Position numbers and translations under genes: made by a program
Shown here: one piece after another, positions 3,088-35,759 of the stretch
How the letters are laid out: each line of letters starts with the position of its first letter
Numbering within the stretch: position 1 is the first letter of the stretch
Virus record (IMG/VR): IMGVR_UViG_2563366960_000010
From: a virus
Lineage: Duplodnaviria > Heunggongvirae > Uroviricota > Caudoviricetes
DNA: 41,090 nucleotides
Direction: 5' to 3' (one strand)
The notes under the pieces: model-generated
Databases searched by the model: none
The model's input: the letters and a program-made list of their open reading frames with translations, nothing else
Told to the model about the DNA's origin: nothing

Positions 3088-3368
3088 ACTTTCTCCTGTT
3101 TACTATCTATAAGCCAGTCAATTATTGATGACTAAACCCGCATAGTAAACCATATATGAATCATTATTGTTCCATATCATATATCTCAATAAAAGTACTA
3201 ATGATTTTACAGAACGAGCCAGCAGAGTGGGGGCAGTTGTACAGGAACCATAGACTTAATTTTGTATTTAATAATGCTATGGTGTAATAAACCTGAACAT
3301 GTATTTAAAATACGTACTGATTCATGATAGAATTCAAAGATAACTTTTCACAAACTCCGTTTTTGATA

Positions 3369-3395: not shown

Positions 3396-6300
3396 AACGT
3401 TCTTCCAGAGACTGAATCCGCTCTTTTATCTTATCCATTTCTCTGCGCTGCCATGCTGCCTCGATATAGAATAAGAGATCAGGTCTGACCCCCCATCTAG
3501 ATCCTGCTGGCGTTATTTCAACGCGCTCAATGATGTCTTCCATTACCATCACTGGATTATCATCCTCATCAACAATGATGCTCCCGTCATTATCAGTCAG
3601 CGGCATTTCCCTTTGGCCAGTAATGACGTCATCATATACTGCGGGATAATCGTCATAGCAAAGAAAGGCATAGCGGCATGTTGTGCTTTCTTCTTCCATG
3701 AGTCCGTGAGAAATAAGAACATCACGAAGTTGCTGCGCGATTACACCATGATGTATCCTCGCCCCTTCTTCCCCCTTTATAGCGACAGCGTTCAGCCATT
3801 TATAAGCGATATACCTGACGTCACCCCAGGCATCCAGCAATGCTTCGTCAGGAGAGACCGGCTCTGTCTTTAATGTTCCGTCACTGGTAACCACAGGATT
3901 GGAGCCAAGATAAACTGTCGAGAACCTGTTTCCCGGACCACCAAGAGCATTTACATTATCAAGATAAGGTTTAACATCTCCGTTCTCAAAAAGATGTTCG
4001 AGTGCGTTATATACCGCGCGACGTGGAGTACTGCTTCCGGAACCATGCAACGTTATCATTGCACCATCTGCTGAAGACGTTGTTTCACCGCCGCTAACGA
4101 TTAATCTCTGAGCGGTAACATCATCAGACGGTACTTTCTTCGCAATAATGGCGTAATTACCCTCAAGTTTGACTTCCGCGCGAACTTGTCCTGATGTACC
4201 TGCATGGACAGTCAGTGACTGGACGGCAACATCATCTGTGAAATCAACGGGTACAGGAACCGTCCTCACGCCTGACGTCGACATAAAAGTAGGAAGCGTT
4301 CTGTTAGGAGTGGCTCCGTAGACAAAATCCCTTGAAACAAATTCTTCCTGTTTAATTTTCACCCTGAAACAATACAAATCAGCCGGGTGACCATCGTGAA
4401 CATAAGGATATTTTCTGTTGTTATCCCCTATGCTCCATGGGTTTAGAAAGTCTTCCCCACCGAAAATGTAGTACAGCCAGTTGTCTTTGATACAAACTGA
4501 ACCAACACCAACTGCAGAGTTAACTATTCCGCCCTGATAAATCTGATCAGTAACATTAACCCACTCTACATTATCCAGACTCCACTCATTGACGTTAACT
4601 CTGGTCATAAATGTTCTTGGATAATTTCCTGCATAACGGTTATCAGGTTCTCCTCCTTCCCACTCACCAAATGCGCGCTCACTGCCAAAAATAATCAGCT
4701 CATCGCCAACTTTGGCAAAAGGAAGGTTTGAGTGATGAACATTATTTGGGAAGCGAAGAGAATTCCATGATGTACCTAAATCAGAGCTTCTGTGCAATGA
4801 ACTACCGGGTTGAGTACTTAATGTCCCCCTGGTCGTCAGATACAGAATGCCATCATAATATTTTACACATGGCTCAGATGCATTCGCCTCATATTCTGCA
4901 GGTATGCGTCTGCGAACAAAGCTACCAGGAGAACCGAAAGCATCAGAGAAATAGAGTATCCCAAGCTCGCGTGGACCAATATCACCATTATGGTAGCCAA
5001 CAGCAAAACTGTTATCGCTAATCGTCGCAAAACTGTGAATCTCAGTAACAGGAGTGCTTCCGTCAACAAAAGAAGGAATAGTTCCAAGACTGGTTTTTCT
5101 CCATGGTGACGAGTGAAATGATGTACCAAAACTCCAGTATCTACCCTCGTTATTCTGATCCACATCCTGGGTATTTTGCGTCGTAACTGTAAAAGTATTT
5201 TTATCAATAACAGTAGTCACCGTCATATTCCCGGTAACACCTGTAACACCAGAGTTTGAGAAGTTGACAAAATCACCAGCAAATAATCCGTGATCAGTAA
5301 TGCGAATATAAGCGACTTGCTGATTTGCTGCTTTCGTTATACCACCATAAGCGCGAAGGCTGCGACTCATTGGGCGATCCCACAACTCTGCAACCTGCAG
5401 TTTATTTCCGCTCACGGTCCGCGTCTCAATTACAGCAAAAAGGCGATTTCTGACAACCCCCATACTCATGCAGTGATAGTTAACTGTGGGATAGTTTTCA
5501 TGTAAATCTGTAAGCCATTCCGGCGTTGTCCAGGTCTTCCCGTCATCTCCTGAGCGAACCCATGCAACATGGAGGTTATTTACACCATGGCGGTCTCCAG
5601 CCATAAAAGGCGCATAGATGACATTGTCATATACAAACGTTTTATCCTGCGTCCAGGCGTTGTACCACGGTGTATCTGTAATTTTAAATAACTCTCCCTG
5701 GATAAAATCTTCAGAAGCATAAAAAAGAGGCTGGCCCGGTATTCTCTCAAATAAAAAACGAGCATTTTTAAATCGACTGACATCCGGAAGAGTTGATACT
5801 TTAAAAGTAAGCCCTAATCCGTCAATTTTATAACCTGGAGATGAGGCTTCAAGGCACGCGCTTATTGCAGTGGAATCGTCATTTATACCATCACCAACAG
5901 CTCCAAAATCTTTGGGGCTAATAGCATCACGCATTTTATCCTGGAACGTTCGGTACACAGCCCCAGAACCATACTGAATAAACCAACCAAAACCACCAAC
6001 AACCCCGGCGATTGCAGCATCGACATAATTACGCATTGAGCGATTATTTACAGCGTCCTGCTCAAATGATGGATCTGCAAGGTTAGAAATTTTGTTTTGC
6101 TTTGCATCGTAATATTTTGCAAGCAAAGATGGTTTCATCAATGCACGTCTGAACCACCCAAAACATTGCTGGATCAGCATCGTCAGGTAGTCAAAGGCAT
6201 CTTCATGCACTTCGGGGAAAAATTTTCCCTGATTGCGAAGGTCTGTCTCCTGCACTACATCAAGCACACGATCTATCGTAATTCGCCATCCAGTAGCAAG

Positions 6301-6617: not shown

Positions 6618-6632
6618 TTACCTTTCAGGTAA
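6618..6632. promoter_or_regulatory. Operator-like 15-bp palindrome TTACCT-N3-AGGTAA
   Basis: Perfect inverted repeat TTACCTTTCAGGTAA upstream of the LexA box and the small antirepressor-like gene. Confidence 0.55.
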
Positions 6633-6988: not shown

Positions 6989-7717
6989 CTATCGTTTCGC
7001 TTTGTGCTCGTCCCAGCACGTTTTGCACCATGCCATTAAGCCGTCCGCATTTTGATTATTAGGGTAAAAGCTGGTCCGTTTTCTGCGGACATTACAAATT
7101 GGGCACCACTTCATATGGCGTGTATTCTTTGGGCCATCGAGACACCTTGCACACCACTTAGTCAATCCATCTGGATTTTTTGACGATTTCCGGAATTTGT
7201 CATATGGAAGGTTTATTCTGCATCGCAAACACTGCTTGCGGCCACTTGAAACTCTGTTAGCTGATTCTTCTTTTGGCGGCGATACAGAAGGTATTCTTGC
7301 TGGCTCTGATACTGCCTGAGGTGCTTTTTTAGATGACTGAGACGATATGTCATCACCAGGGAATCTTCCATGATATGCCGGACGCATTGATACTCCAGGT
7401 GGAAGCTCAGCTGTAAACGGCTTTGGCTGAATCAGTTGCCTCTCTTTTGCTAACTCCTGCTGTTTACAATATGTCTGGATTACCGCACTATCATAAGCAG
7501 GAGGTGCGGAAATATTAGGCGCATTACCTCCAGTTTTTTGAAACTGAGTAGAGGTGTGTTCTATCACCTGTGTACGATTAATCGTTATCTCCCCATCTTC
7601 GGTCTTTATCGTTTTGTTATGATTAACGACCGTACGATCAGAGATCTTAGTCTTGTTCTGGTTGATAACGTAAATAATCACCGCAACCACACCAACAACT
7701 ATCCAGAAAACTTCCAT
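6989..7717 (-). CDS. Membrane-anchored protein with tandem CxxC zinc-ribbon repeats; candidate superinfection-exclusion factor
   Basis: 242 aa; N-terminal TM helix, Pro/Ser-rich linker, C-terminal twofold repeat C-x2-C ... DGL..WC-x2-C; SD GAGGA upstream; operator palindrome just upstream. Confidence 0.55.
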   Translation of the reverse strand: MEVFWIVVGVVAVIIYVINQNKTKISDRTVVNHNKTIKTEDGEITINRTQVIEHTSTQFQKTGGNAPNISAPPAYDSAVIQTYCKQQELAKERQLIQPKPFTAELPPGVSMRPAYHGRFPGDDISSQSSKKAPQAVSEPARIPSVSPPKEESANRVSSGRKQCLRCRINLPYDKFRKSSKNPDGLTKWCARCLDGPKNTRHMKWCPICNVRRKRTSFYPNNQNADGLMAWCKTCWDEHKAKR

Positions 7718-7737
7718 TGCTTTTCCTCACAATAACA

Positions 7738-7752
7738 TTACCTTAAAGGTAA
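7738..7752. promoter_or_regulatory. Operator-like palindrome TTACCTTAAAGGTAA
   Basis: Perfect 15-bp inverted repeat 21 nt upstream of the minus-strand start at 7717. Confidence 0.55.
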
Positions 7753-7830
7753 TATCTTGCTTTCAGGTGATCAAGCGTTAAACGCCACCAACCAAATACG
7801 GTTGATTTTGATATTTCTCCGCGTTTATCA

Positions 7831-7845
7831 TTACCTTTGCGGTAA
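7831..7845. promoter_or_regulatory. Operator-like palindrome TTACCTTTGCGGTAA (one mismatch)
   Basis: Near-perfect copy preceded by candidate -35/-10 elements (TTGATT ... TATCAT); upstream of the structured leader before ant. Confidence 0.5.
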
Positions 7846-7935
7846 ATTTACATCGCACTCCTCTTGTGCCATAGTAATCGGGCACTGGCAAAATCCAGTG
7901 CCGGGATTGGCGTCCCGGGTTACTAAGTGGCGCAT

Positions 7936-7959
7936 ACCACGCCAGACGTGGTTTTTTTA
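7936..7959 (+). terminator. Intrinsic terminator inside the leader upstream of the antirepressor gene
   Basis: Stem ACCACG / CGTGGT with 5-nt loop followed by T7; preceded by a strong hairpin GGCACTGG / CCAGTGCC at 7881-7902. Confidence 0.6.
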
Positions 7960-8114
7960 TGCGTTAAGCACAGCTATATCCGAATTATGGTGGGCTGGGC
8001 AGGGGTCCGAAAGGACGCCGGTACCACTTAGGCCGGTACGCCAACCTTGTCCAGTTCACCACCAGTAATTGGCGTTGCGGTGGTGATTAAAATCACTAAG
8101 TGGAGATAACCACC

Positions 8115-8825
8115 ATGGCTAATGCTCAAACTTCCATCTTCAAATTTGAATCTGTTAACCCTATCCGTTCCATCATTATCGATGGCCAACCATGGTTTGT
8201 AGCCCAAGACGTTTGTAGTGCGCTGCGTATCCAAAACGTCACCCAAGCACTTGAAAAACTGGATGATGATGAAAGGTCTATGTTCAACATAGGGCATGAA
8301 CATCGTGCAATTTTTGACAGCCGAGTAAAAGAGATCAACATCATCTCCGAGTCAGGCCTCTACACACTGATCCTCCGCTGCCGCGACGCAGTGACACCAG
8401 GCACTATCCCCTACCGCTTTCGTAAATGGGTTACGGGTGAGGTTCTTCCTCAGATCCGCCGCACCGGAAGCTACATTAAAAACTCGCTCCCGCAGGAAGA
8501 ACGCATAAAGATGGTTGCCGACCAGGTGGCCAACGCCACGGCGTCAGCAGTAATGCAGGCGATGAAGATAGAGAACAAAACCTACAGCGCCCCACTGAAT
8601 CCCGGCTACCGCAGCCTGATTCATTCGCCGTCTGGTGTTCTCGGCCTGACGGAGAACTCACTGCTGATGAATCTGCTGAACCAGTTACAGGACGACGGGC
8701 ACGACGTATCGGGCGCGGCGGCGGAGCTGACCACCATGTTCTGCTACATCGTCGGTGTGAGCAAATGCCTGCGTGATATCCAGACCCACGCGGAATACAT
8801 CAACGACAAGGCAGGGTTCTTCTGA
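8115..8825 (+). CDS. ant: Antirepressor, Bro-N/KilA-N family N-terminal domain
   Basis: 236 aa from ATG 8115 with SD GGAG; N-terminal Bro-N pattern (IFKFE...IRSIIIDGQPWFVAQDV); C-terminal domain paralogous to the 85-aa ORF. Confidence 0.75.
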   Translation: MANAQTSIFKFESVNPIRSIIIDGQPWFVAQDVCSALRIQNVTQALEKLDDDERSMFNIGHEHRAIFDSRVKEINIISESGLYTLILRCRDAVTPGTIPYRFRKWVTGEVLPQIRRTGSYIKNSLPQEERIKMVADQVANATASAVMQAMKIENKTYSAPLNPGYRSLIHSPSGVLGLTENSLLMNLLNQLQDDGHDVSGAAAELTTMFCYIVGVSKCLRDIQTHAEYINDKAGFF

Positions 8826-26075: not shown

Positions 26076-26090
26076 TTACCTTTCAGGTAA
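26076..26090. promoter_or_regulatory. Operator-like palindrome TTACCTTTCAGGTAA upstream of the tRNA island
   Basis: Perfect copy; a TTGACA hexamer lies 17 nt upstream. Confidence 0.5.
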
Positions 26091-26412: not shown

Positions 26413-26489
26413 GTGGCATTAGCTCAGTTGGACAGAGCAACCGCCTTCTAAGCGGTTGGTCGCAGGTTCGAATCCTGCATGCCACGCCA
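26413..26489 (+). tRNA. tRNA-Arg (anticodon UCU), phage-encoded, argU-like
   Basis: 77-nt cloverleaf folded by hand: acceptor GTGGCAT/ATGCCAC, T-arm GCAGG-TTCGAAT-CCTGC, anticodon loop CTTCTAA, discriminator G, encoded CCA; core resembles E. coli argU but stems differ. Confidence 0.85.
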
Positions 26490-35174: not shown

Positions 35175-35759
35175 ATGAAAAGTATCCAGGACGTCCGCAG
35201 GCAAAATCTCAACGACTTGATCGACCGTGAATTCAATGGTGTTCAGACGCGGATGGCAGAAAAACTTGGAACTCAGGCAAATCTGGTAAACCGCTGGGCT
35301 CTTGGCAAGAAGGTTATCGGCGACCAGGTTGCACGAAAAATTGAAGCTGCCGCCAATAAACCCCGTAACTGGCTTGATATTGATCGTTCGCTTTCTCAGG
35401 AGGGTTTTCAGCCTGTCGGCCCGAGCGATATAGGTCAGCTGGCGGCTCACAACCTGGAACGCTGGATGAGCGAAAGCCGCGACCTTTCAACACAGGGAAA
35501 ACTTCACCGCGCATCCGGCGTCGCCCAGGTGACAATCAGCCGCCTGTTAAACAATGAGGTCAGCGTTTCCATTTCCACCCTGGAGAATGTTGCATCCGCA
35601 TTCGGGCGTCACGGATATGAACTACTGATTCACCCGCACGACCCTGCGACTATCAACTATGACCGCTCACGCTACGCATTGTTACCCGAAACCGAGAAAG
35701 CAAAGATCGAAAGTTACATTGAATTTGTCATCAACCAGAACGAAAAAAGCAAACAATAA
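35175..35759 (+). CDS. Prophage repressor candidate with tandem XRE-type HTH domains and no S24 peptidase domain
   Basis: 194 aa; two HTH-like segments; no Ser-Lys autocleavage domain recognisable; divergent from the cro-like gene. Confidence 0.6.
   Translation: MKSIQDVRRQNLNDLIDREFNGVQTRMAEKLGTQANLVNRWALGKKVIGDQVARKIEAAANKPRNWLDIDRSLSQEGFQPVGPSDIGQLAAHNLERWMSESRDLSTQGKLHRASGVAQVTISRLLNNEVSVSISTLENVASAFGRHGYELLIHPHDPATINYDRSRYALLPETEKAKIESYIEFVINQNEKSKQ

Follow-up and report, generated by a model that had tools for sequence, protein, structure and literature searches.

The systems closest to the locus described here are the immunity regions of P1 and P4 and the isrK locus of Gifsy-1. The immI region of P1 and P7 consists of an operator, Oc4, followed by the segments a1 and b1, the c4 RNA, the segments a2 and b2, and the genes icd and ant1/2. 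Repression of Ant synthesis in P1 is exerted by the c4 RNA, whose b′ segment occludes the ribosome binding site and which RNase P processes (PMC8546580, PMC5320573). The icd gene is an upstream open reading frame (ORF); it is the direct translational target, and ant expression depends on it. Processing by RNase P releases P1 C4 from a longer precursor (PMC5320573). Facts on P1 are drawn here from its GenBank annotation and from secondary sources, and the ends of P1 C4 from annotation and sequence. The Gifsy-1 locus runs from isrK through orf45 (STnc1160) to anrP (Hershko-Shalev et al. 2016, PMC4825925). There, read-through of the IsrK terminator has been shown to be partial and yields an mRNA that is not translated; when IsrK is supplied in trans, translation of the antirepressor rises more than 100-fold. 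Activation proceeds via translation of orf45, an ORF coupled to anrP that extends across the C4 region. Binding of IsrK to Hfq, and trans-activation by IsrK of its own read-through mRNA, are described for Gifsy-1 only (PMC4825925). In P4, immunity is laid out on one strand as seqA, the CI RNA and seqC.

The window analysed here is a stretch of 41,090 nucleotides from a Caudoviricetes virus (IMG/VR record IMGVR_UViG_2563366960_000010). Its positions 7831–8114 probably form a P1-type immI RNA cassette that controls ant, a Bro-N antirepressor gene, with an IsrK-type RNA and a C4-type antisense RNA that together most likely set the amount of antirepressor made by the prophage. The cassette is an ordinary, unannotated copy of the system already studied in P1, P4 and Gifsy-1. 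Two known Rfam families stand in tandem on the plus strand, isrK (RF01394) followed by the C4 antisense RNA (RF01695), and a covariance-model search matches both models over their full length and above their gathering scores. The order on this strand is operator, promoter, IsrK with a1, b1 and a weak terminator, C4 with a′ and b′, then a2, b2 and ant. All 12 enterobacterial phage loci retrieved show this tandem of isrK and C4 at Rfam gathering score. As a whole, the 250-nucleotide leader folds at −104.4 kcal/mol, as against −82.3 ± 4.9 for shuffled sequences (z = −4.56), and none of 200 shuffles does as well; the structure of the leader exceeds chance expectation.

The first-pass annotation had described this leader as a series of hairpins with an internal terminator, and all of the listed elements exist within a few bases of where it placed them. 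The stem GGTCC-GAAA-GGAC is found at 8004–8016. The complementary pair CACCACC and GGTGGTG is also real, but its strands lie at 8056–8062 and 8079–8085 rather than at 8046–8080. What had been taken as further stems of generic leader structure is instead a complete C4 antisense RNA, the repressor element in P1.

Starting from the 5′ end, the inverted repeat TTACC-TTTGC-GGTAA (7831–7845) lies directly 5′ of the −35 hexamer and accounts for the operator that had been proposed at 7831. Allowing one mismatch, the pattern TTACC-N5-GGTAA occurs 13 times in the window, as against 0.55 expected by chance, and related Uetakevirus loci carry the same half-sites at the operator position with a variable 5-nucleotide spacer. 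A candidate repressor gene, with an HTH_3 domain, lies at 35175–35759 and is a putative partner of this operator set. A promoter scan predicts a sigma-70 promoter on the plus strand at 7847–7875 (TTTACA-17-CATAGT, with an extended −10 TG). The predicted transcription start, about 7882, coincides with position 1 of the isrK model. In all relatives, a promoter precedes IsrK hairpin 1 by this distance, as it does at the Gifsy-1 isrK locus, for which we set the start site at isrK model position 1, in agreement with the mutant numbering of PMC4825925. Another promoter-like site at 7802–7831, which would yield an RNA of about 120 nucleotides, was set aside, as the site conserved at a fixed distance in relatives is a different one. 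The same scan finds no promoter-like site on the minus strand in 7800–8200.

The IsrK-family RNA occupies positions 7882–7958 of the plus strand, about 77 nucleotides, and consists of two hairpins, a single-stranded linker and a terminator. It scores 67.7 bits against isrK (threshold 50; model positions 1–77; E = 1.6e-12), and the interval 7869–7921 scores 44.1 bits against c4-a1b1 (RF03163), just below the threshold of 46.7. Hairpin 1 (GCACUGG/CCAGUGC, 7882–7901) has all 7 of its pairs changed on both sides among relatives. Hairpin 2 (CGGGA-UUGGCG-UCCCG, 7902–7917) carries the a1 segment in its loop. The weak intrinsic terminator found by the terminator scan, ACCACG-CCAGA-CGUGGU followed by a U run, spans 7936–7958; its hairpin (7936–7952) has 6 pairs, a folding energy of −7.6 kcal/mol and z = −2.98, and its U7 run occupies 7952–7958. 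All 111 relatives carry a T run of 5 or more, and 108 of them, each folded individually, show a terminator hairpin of about −8 kcal/mol. The earlier suggestion of a small RNA thus holds in that a discrete RNA, of the IsrK family, is predicted to end at the internal terminator, but its length is about 77 and not about 120 nucleotides, because the conserved promoter TTTACA-17-CATAGT sets the start at about 7882.

The terminator is enclosed by a further helix on the plus strand, hereafter the bridge helix, in which GCGCAU (7930–7935) pairs with AUGCGU (7959–7964). Formation of this helix requires read-through RNA, and the minimum-energy fold of the leader as a whole includes it. Its strands covary between relatives, cognate pairing exceeding non-cognate pairing to an extent reached in 0 of 10000 permutations, and in P1 its equivalent is GGACA...TGTCC. 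Both C4, the counterpart of the STnc1160 region, and ant lie 3′ of IsrK, and Gifsy-1 gives the same pair of Rfam families.

The C4 element (7983–8066, plus strand) matches RF01695 with 66 bits (threshold 45; model positions 1–87; E = 8.7e-11). Aligned to the annotated 77-nucleotide C4 of P1, the mature RNA is predicted to comprise 7989–8062 (74 nucleotides), and its 5′ GGU and 3′ CCACC match the annotated P1 C4 in position. It folds at −43.5 kcal/mol (z = −4.6) into a long closing stem with two internal hairpins. The 17 pairs of the long stem are 100% paired in 44 sequences, with 5 pairs changed on both sides. Three small helices, that of the terminator and those of both minor C4 hairpins, reach a column-wise figure of only 46–61% paired on a MAFFT alignment with indels, in which alignment gaps blur the pair counts of the C4 hairpins and the terminator mapping slips by one base in register; these counts are no evidence against the three helices. 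Single-sequence folds show the terminator in 108 of 111 modules, and the C4 fold is clean. Segment b′ (CCACUUAG, 8024–8031) forms the loop of C4 hairpin 2, and segment a′ (ACGCCAA, 8038–8044) is unpaired between this hairpin and the 3′ strand of the long stem, both on the plus strand.

Downstream of C4, a leader hairpin on the plus strand (8079–8114) pairs GGUGGU (8079–8084) with ACCACC (8109–8114), encloses b2 and the Shine–Dalgarno sequence and ends at the start codon of ant. The fold of 8066–8125 has an energy of −19.3 kcal/mol (z = −3.27). Across 44 sequences, pairing in the helix that closes it reaches 91.6%, as against 28–42% with the partner slid by 1 or 2 columns, and most changes in this helix are one-sided. 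The gene itself (8115–8825, plus strand; ATG at 8115) encodes a 236-aa protein with a Bro-N domain (Pfam, 71.4 bits), and relatives bear annotations as anti-repressor or anti-immunity proteins. The genes 3′ of 41 modules are all of antirepressor type (Bro-N, ORF6N, Rha, AntA, KilA-N and P22_AR_C). In the window, ant has its own GGAG (8102–8105) at good spacing, and the interval between b2 and ant contains no ORF. The only ORF starting within C4 begins at the ATG at 7987, has 14 codons and stops at 8029–8031, 84 nucleotides before the ant ATG.

What ties the three parts of the leader together is a set of repeated segments, all on the plus strand. Segment a1 (UUGGCGU, 7907–7913), in the loop of IsrK hairpin 2, is an exact 7-nucleotide complement of a′, and a2 (UUGGCGU, 8069–8075) is a target copy in the ant leader, again complementary to a′. 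Segment b1 (CUAAGUGG, 7923–7930), in the IsrK linker, is an exact 8-nucleotide complement of the b′ loop, and the identical b2 (8096–8103) overlaps the first two G of the ant Shine–Dalgarno GGAG. Among relatives, the 6 tested pairs of a1 with a′ are 100% paired in 42 sequences, 2 of the 6 covarying, and 107 of 111 modules carry the reverse complement of a′ within their IsrK part. The 7 pairs of a′ with a2 are 100% paired in 44 sequences, with 3 covarying over 33 cells, as against at most 40% paired when the partner is slid by 1–3 columns; a2 is the exact complement of a′ in 111 of 111 modules. For b, cognate matches of b′ with b1 and with b2 are longer than non-cognate ones, and the observed sum is reached in 0 of 10000 permutations, in a cross-matrix built on fixed alignment windows with Watson–Crick-only scoring. 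An earlier matrix that allowed G–U pairs and used loops delimited by RNAfold was noisy and was replaced. In all, the 111 related modules fall into 3 a-types and about 30 b-types, and within each module all three copies match. The local duplexes have energies of −10.3 (a) and −12.6 (b) kcal/mol, and only these short duplexes are specific: whole-molecule duplexes are no better than those with shuffled targets (z = −1.4 for IsrK with C4 and −0.6 for the ant leader with C4), a comparison that is uninformative because GC-rich stems dominate it. Control of ant at the RNA level, which the first-pass annotation had raised as plausible, is almost certain.

We infer from sequence the promoter, the start site, the read-through, the processing of C4 and the direction of the effect on ant, and propose the following course. 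When the prophage repressor leaves its TTACC-N5-GGTAA operator, transcription would start at about 7882. Most transcripts would stop at 7958 as the 77-nucleotide IsrK RNA, and a fraction would read through. From the read-through RNA, C4 (about 7989–8062) would be cut, its 5′ end by RNase P as in P1, and its a′ and b′ segments would pair with a2 and b2, so that ribosome binding at ant is blocked. Because the window has no icd-like ORF, b2 would act directly at the ribosome binding site of ant. As a target mimic, IsrK would take up a′ and b′, both in free C4 and in C4 still embedded in the long transcript, and so relieve the block. The output of ant would follow from the ratio of terminated to read-through transcripts, and immunity specificity from the a and b sequences.

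Published Gifsy-1 results bear on this course in several ways. The compensatory mutants G28A/C162U and G31A/C159U (PMC4825925) map exactly to a1 and a′. When a C4-like RNA was overexpressed with IsrK in Gifsy-1, the effect of IsrK was not lessened (PMC4825925), a result that does not fit a simple titration model. The orf45 step of Gifsy-1 cannot carry over to the window, because the equivalent ORF has only 14 codons. We put forward, as a tentative idea with perhaps one chance in a few of being right, that every one of these phages, also P1 and P4, uses IsrK as the general anti-antisense partner of its C4. An RNA-only circuit might then be made up of the weak terminator, the duplicated a and b segments and the bridge helix, by which part of b1 is hidden in read-through RNA only. 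It would turn the ratio of terminated to read-through transcripts into an on or off state of the antirepressor, with the roughly 3 × 30 combinations of a and b acting as a large natural set of mutually orthogonal immunity specificities. Were this so, the window would hold the simplest form of the circuit, one with no need for an upstream ORF.

The main effect of C4 could also fall on RNA elongation and not on ribosome binding, a reading that we consider unlikely though deserving of some weight. C4 would pair with a1/b1 and a2/b2 on the nascent RNA and cause premature termination, for which the site would be the terminator of IsrK or a Rho-dependent one located upstream of ant or inside it. P4 shares the arrangement of an isrK-like element with C4, and its CI RNA is reported to cause termination after pairing with seqA and seqC (as summarised in PMC4825925). 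In the window, b1 ends 5 nucleotides before the terminator stem, and the bridge helix overlaps b1 and forms only in read-through RNA; therefore, pairing at b1 could shift the choice between termination and read-through. However, b2 lies over the Shine–Dalgarno sequence, 12 nucleotides from the ATG, which is the geometry of the translational block of P1, and the terminator scan finds no second plus-strand terminator between a2/b2 and ant. Because the translational block in P1 itself causes downstream polarity, the two modes are compatible.

A switch in cis of the Gifsy-1 type is decidedly improbable as an account of the window. In it, a1 and b1 would pair with a′ and b′ of the same read-through RNA. 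An ORF that begins where C4 begins would have its ribosome binding site opened by IsrK in trans, and its translation would be coupled into ant. The window shares its RNA elements with the studied Gifsy-1 locus, and the AUG within AAUUAUGGUGGG is conserved at 7987. Yet, the ORF from 7987 ends after 14 codons, 84 nucleotides short of the ant ATG, and ant carries its own GGAG at good spacing. Across relatives, 71 of 109 modules have a stop before the downstream start, and only 1 of 109 ends at that start. For the window, the coupling step is thus already refuted in large part by sequence.

The attenuator proposed in the first-pass annotation survives in part, since read-through of a terminator between the promoter and ant is required to reach the gene. 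A plain attenuator with a protein antiterminator, or a leader of unrelated hairpins, is very improbable: the elements match two curated RNA families at E < 1e-10, their intermolecular complementarity covaries, the terminator is uniformly weak, and nothing points to a dedicated protein antiterminator, for which neither a gene nor a site was identified. The uniform weakness of its hairpin, at about −8 kcal/mol in 108 of the 111 relatives, fits constitutive partial read-through instead, as shown for Gifsy-1 (PMC4825925). Least credible of all is that the region encodes a protein, be it the 103-aa ORF at 7757–8068, rejected as a gene since it matches nothing in Pfam up to E = 1, or a protein of the ‘Ash family’ or ‘SF0880-like’ kind that annotations of relatives name: the window does have an open frame across the module, 62 of 111 modules keep one frame open and Pfam Phage_ASH matches such ORFs in relatives, but the Phage_ASH-like frame in the window is broken by stops and reaches only 18.6 bits, 32 of 111 modules are without an open frame, the variation is compensatory in RNA helices, and the P4 ‘cI’ ORF overlaps the CI RNA, which is taken as the immunity factor (PMC4825925).

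With the P1-type immI cassette as the preferred reading, the leader is a standard arrangement of isrK and C4 and not a novel structure. Of 5426 complete E. coli genomes, at least 473 carry related modules, as do 253 phage records, Stx phages among them. RefSeq leaves the cassette unlabelled, and E. coli annotation at the site gives only ‘BRO-N domain-containing protein’ and ‘hypothetical protein’. Antirepressor synthesis, and through it prophage induction and heteroimmunity, is probably gated by the cassette in epsilon15-like prophages. The systems of P1, P4 and Gifsy-1 are usually treated separately, and a single layout is common to them, in which the specificity segments a and b change together at three places. 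The copy in the window indicates that the cassette can exist without an upstream ORF such as icd or orf45.

The system named in the first-pass annotation, the sar antisense RNA of P22, resembles the window in that an antirepressor gene is controlled at the RNA level. The analogy goes no further: sar lies on the opposite strand, across the arc–ant junction, whereas the regulator in the window comes from the strand of its target, with no minus-strand promoter and no sar match. A sar-type antisense RNA was rejected as a candidate, RF00262 being absent from the window at gathering score and from 7700–8300 at E up to 1. P4 is nearer, with its isrK-like element (60.8 bits) and C4/CI (74.9 bits) and a regulator that, as predicted for the window, is processed from the leader of the transcript under its control. 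The gap between isrK and C4 is about 108 nucleotides in P4, as opposed to 24 in the window, and P4 controls replication genes by transcription termination, not the ribosome binding site of an antirepressor gene.

Gifsy-1 has isrK (79.3 bits) and C4 (69 bits) at gathering score with the same spacing as the window, the same a type (UUGGCGU/ACGCCAA), the GGUGGUGA element and a b2 that adjoins the ribosome binding site, and antirepressor expression requires terminator read-through in both. The 45 codons of orf45, with a stop overlapping the anrP ATG, are reduced to a 14-codon dead end in the window; AnrP and the Ant of the window are unrelated by BLASTP, and neither antQ nor isrJ is found near the cassette. 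The promoter context differs too, being the lambdoid nin/Q region in Gifsy-1 and the tail-fiber region, with TTACC-N5-GGTAA operators, in the window.

Unlike the plasmid prophage P1, the phage of the window is an epsilon15-like podovirus prophage; it is without an icd-like ORF, its a and b sequences differ from those of P1, and its Ant has no BLASTP similarity to P1 Ant1. P1 scores 51.0 bits for c4-a1b1 and 35.1 bits for isrK (threshold 50), as against 67.7 for isrK in the window, and has a terminator-like hairpin. As in P1, a repressor operator, here a putative one, stands at the promoter and an antirepressor gene lies downstream; a1, b1, C4, a2 and b2 follow in the same order on one strand, with a of 7 and b of 8 nucleotides, and a hairpin with a U run separates b1 from C4. 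Similar to P1, finally, C4 has the same fold (68.8 bits in P1 and 66 bits in the window), and b2 precedes a start codon at nearly the same distance, 12 nucleotides before ant in the window and 11 before icd in P1.

The leader of ant (8115–8825 (+)), whose 236-aa product carries a Bro-N domain (71.4 bits), is an unannotated member of an already known kind of RNA control system. A whole-window Rfam scan at gathering thresholds gave three matches in all, a tRNA, isrK and C4. The isrK match (RF01394) occupies 7882–7958 (+), with 67.7 bits against a threshold of 50 (model positions 1–77), and the C4 antisense RNA (RF01695) occupies 7983–8066 (+), with 66 bits against 45 (model positions 1–87). A looser scan adds c4-a1b1 (RF03163, 'a1, b1 targets of C4') at 7869–7921, at 44.1 bits under its threshold of 46.7 (E = 6.8e-10). 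The hairpins, terminator, further stems, operator repeat and ant start listed in the first-pass annotation are all present in the sequence of 7300–8700. Because of these matches, hairpin 1 (7882–7901), hairpin 2 (7902–7917) and the terminator hairpin (7936–7952; 6 pairs, 5-nt loop, −7.6 kcal/mol), which runs into the U7 tract at 7952–7958, are read as one known small RNA, and the further stems (GGTCC-GAAA-GGAC, 8004–8016; CACCACC 8056–8062 with GGTGGTG 8079–8085) as a second; all lie on the (+) strand, as do the Shine–Dalgarno GGAG at 8102–8105 and the ATG at 8115. The 250 nt from 7876 to 8125 fold at −104.4 kcal/mol, versus −82.3 ± 4.9 in dinucleotide shuffles (z = −4.56; 0 of 200 as good).

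The suggestion of a small RNA in the leader stands, as does that of RNA-level control of ant, which we infer here from the isrK–C4 cassette. The predicted IsrK RNA is 77 nt by its model positions, not the ~120 nt first suggested, and the analogy with P22 sar was wrong, the Rfam scan giving no sar match in the window. That reading also did not recognise C4, the repressor RNA itself, in the second half of the leader. TL-2011b does have a P22-type sar match (6233–6300 of locus L002; 44.8 bits against a threshold of 43), ~3 kb downstream from its isrK/C4 cassette.

The operator is an inverted repeat, TTACC-N5-GGTAA, at 7831–7845, and is followed by a predicted promoter (TTTACA-17-CATAGT with an extended −10 TG, 7847–7875 (+)) with a predicted start at ~7882. 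With at most one mismatch, the repeat occurs 13 times in the window versus 0.55 expected, a count reached by no shuffle; the 15-nt sites begin at 6618, 7738, 7831, 8898, 26076, 29181, 29199, 32756, 32818, 35057, 35105, 35817 and 35879. They precede ant/IsrK, a divergent 242-aa gene, the 8972 ORF, the small terminase subunit ORF and replication genes, and look like a dispersed operator set similar to the C1 operators of P1. Flanked by pairs of sites, the HTH_3 protein gene at 35175–35759 (+) is a candidate for the prophage repressor. The 242-aa ORF (6989–7717 (-)) separates the tail-fiber region from the ant cassette and comes with an operator copy of its own (7738–7752). Its product has an N-terminal hydrophobic segment, a Cys-rich C-terminus and a weak Stc1 match (21.6 bits, below cut-off); a similar stretch in TL-2011b is annotated as misc_feature only, and phiV10 lacks it. 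The tRNA gene (26413–26486 (+), 73.3 bits) is inside the prophage and adjoins the operator copy at 26076.

In its fold, C4 has a closing stem of 17 pairs and two hairpins: a GAAA hairpin and another whose loop is 11 nt long, followed by an unpaired stretch of 7 nt. The loop of the second hairpin holds b′ (CCACUUAG, 8024–8031 (+)) and the unpaired stretch is a′ (ACGCCAA, 8038–8044 (+)); each has two exact complements, one in IsrK and one in the ant leader downstream of C4. Within IsrK, a1 (UUGGCGU, 7907–7913 (+)) sits in the loop of hairpin 2 and b1 (CUAAGUGG, 7923–7930 (+)) lies in the linker. Their leader counterparts are a2 (8069–8075 (+)) and b2 (8096–8103 (+)); the two leading G of GGAG fall within b2, which ends 12 nt before the ATG. 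The local a duplex has an energy of −10.3 kcal/mol and the b duplex one of −12.6 kcal/mol. A leader hairpin, closed by GGUGGU 8079–8084 and ACCACC 8109–8114 (+), encloses b2 and the Shine–Dalgarno sequence. A bridge helix (GCGCAU 7930–7935 with AUGCGU 7959–7964 (+)) surrounds the terminator; because its 3′ strand comes after the U run, it is possible only in read-through RNA, where it includes the 3′ end of b1. Its strands vary in concert across relatives, with a counterpart at the P1 locus (~3277–3283 with ~3311–3318 of L134), and it is part of neither the isrK nor the C4 Rfam model.

The window represents an epsilon15-like E. coli prophage (Uetakevirus). In each of the nearest phage records, HEMP4, TL-2011b, phiv142-3 and phiV10, the module has a tail-fiber gene on its upstream side and is followed by a gene labelled 'anti-repressor' or 'anti-immunity'. 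DNA-level conservation extends over ~7824–8090, a block that comprises operator, promoter, IsrK and C4 and stops short of the ant ribosome binding site. With a more sensitive search, the isrK–C4 module was recovered from 253 phage records, most of them of Stx-converting phages. Of 5426 complete E. coli genomes, at least 473 carry it too, and RefSeq labels at these copies are BRO-N protein and hypothetical protein only. By Rfam, all 12 enterobacterial phage loci fetched have C4 directly after isrK, and in VT2-Sakai the c4-a1b1 match overlaps the isrK match. A viral-contig scan contributed 120 more loci, which, pooled with the earlier ones, gave 111 distinct modules. The cargo genes of 41 modules are all of antirepressor type (Bro-N 15, ORF6N 11, Rha 6, P22_AR_C 6, AntA 2, KilA-N 1). 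In the Pasteurellaceae phage Aaphi23 (L013), Rfam AaHKsRNA82 (1848–1928, 99 bits), upstream of ant, follows an a1-type hairpin (UCGGGAUUGGCGUCCUGA) and precedes the C4 match; this stretch is probably the local equivalent of the IsrK terminator part.

The identity and order of the elements, their complementarity and the covariation of that complementarity are established here. Among the 111 modules, a′ is ACGCCAA in 89, AGACCAA in 18 and GUUCCAA in 4; its reverse complement recurs within IsrK in 107 modules and in the leader downstream in all 111. There are ~30 distinct b′ loops, and b1 and b2 fit the cognate loop in each, as in the matched pairs CCUUUUAG with CUAAAAGG, UUGAGUAG with CUACUCAA and AUCAUGAUGA with UCAUCAUG. 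Scored by Watson–Crick pairs only in fixed windows, the mean b′:b1 run is 6.66 nt for cognate versus 3.85 nt for non-cognate partners, and the b′:b2 run 7.86 versus 4.33 nt; the observed sums are reached by 0 of 10,000 permutations, which ignore sequence relatedness, although every class has a loop sequence of its own. Helix pairs were counted in an alignment of 44 sequences. Here IsrK hairpin 1 has both-side changes in 7 of 7 pairs, and the C4 long stem is 100% paired with both-side changes in 5 pairs. Both a interactions are 100% paired, a1:a′ with 2 of 6 pairs covarying and a′:a2 with 3 of 7 (slid versions of the latter, ≤40% paired). The overall covariation score is 0.231 versus 0.123 shuffled (0 of 500 reach it) and ≤0.106 with slid partners. 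The closing helix of the leader hairpin is 91.6% paired versus 28–42% when slid by 1 or 2 columns, a modest support because the changes are mostly one-sided.

Pfam PF10554 (Phage_ASH) matches translated ORFs exactly over isrK and C4 at 1989–2271 of comparison locus L004, 1900–2187 of L012 and 8330–8521 of P4 (L136). The matching ORFs are the 'Ash family protein' of Hafnia phage yong2, the N-terminal part of the PhiR47_1 'Rha protein' and the old P4 'cI' ORF overlapping the CI RNA. The window has a weak match (7873–8020, 18.6 bits) in a frame interrupted by stops. At least part of PF10554 may be a conserved RNA modelled as protein. Because the AUG at the C4 5′ end can be in frame with the antirepressor gene (35 of 109 modules), one long fused ORF is annotated across both RNAs (for example, L012 1552–2700).

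We propose a five-step scheme, which as a whole we regard as probable. The promoter would start RNA at ~7882 under repression via the adjoining operator, as at P1 Oc4. At the weak terminator, with a hairpin of ~−8 kcal/mol in 108 of 111 modules, the 77-nt IsrK RNA would be released or polymerase would pass. C4, whose 5′ GGU and 3′ CCACC correspond to the ends of the annotated P1 C4, would be cut out of the read-through RNA; RNase P processing of C4 has been described (PMC5320573). It would then pair with a2 and b2 and block ant translation, following the logic of P1 (PMC8546580, PMC5320573). Finally, IsrK would occupy a′ and b′ via a1 and b1 and lift the block, as the Gifsy-1 result suggests. 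The main alternative is a P4-style termination mode, and translational block and P4-style termination may operate together. In P4, isrK scores 60.8 bits and C4 74.9 bits, in agreement with the published remark on the resemblance of IsrK to P4 SeqA (PMC4825925).

In the P1 record (NC_005856), the −35 region of the c4 promoter carries the C1 operator Oc4. Annotated after it are, in turn, a 7-nt a1, an 8-nt b1, the 77-nt C4, the a2 and b2 copies, icd at 11 nt from b2, and ant1/ant2. Rfam scores there are 68.8 bits for C4 and 51.0 bits for c4-a1b1, and a sub-threshold isrK match (35.1 bits, E = 8.5e-6) takes in a hairpin and U run between b1 and c4, so the 'internal terminator' layout already exists in P1. 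In Gifsy-1 (NC_010392), isrK (79.3 bits), C4 (69) and c4-a1b1 (48.1) lie directly upstream of anrP (STM2616). Counted from the first base of the isrK match, positions G28 and G31 of the published mutants are in a1 (UUGGCGU), and C159 and C162 in a′ (ACGCCAA); a1:a′ pairing was therefore tested directly by the published compensatory mutations and gel shifts (PMC4825925). There, anrP is transcribed from the isrK promoter via read-through, the long RNA is untranslated, IsrK in trans raises anrP translation >100-fold, and a stable RNA, STnc1160, is processed out of the orf45 region (PMC4825925). In Gifsy-1, the orf45 start codon is the AUG of AAUUAUGGUGGG, the C4 5′ end, whereas the ORF in this position in the window (AUG 7987) has 14 codons, with its stop (8029–8031) inside the b′ loop. 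Of such ORFs in 109 modules, 71 stop short of the downstream start codon, 35 continue in frame and a single one terminates right at that codon. BLASTP shows no similarity of the window Ant to either AnrP or P1 Ant1; with these unrelated proteins and the varied antirepressor cargo, the RNA cassette is therefore portable. Unlike P1, the window has no icd-like ORF, and its cassette lies right over the ribosome binding site of the cargo gene.
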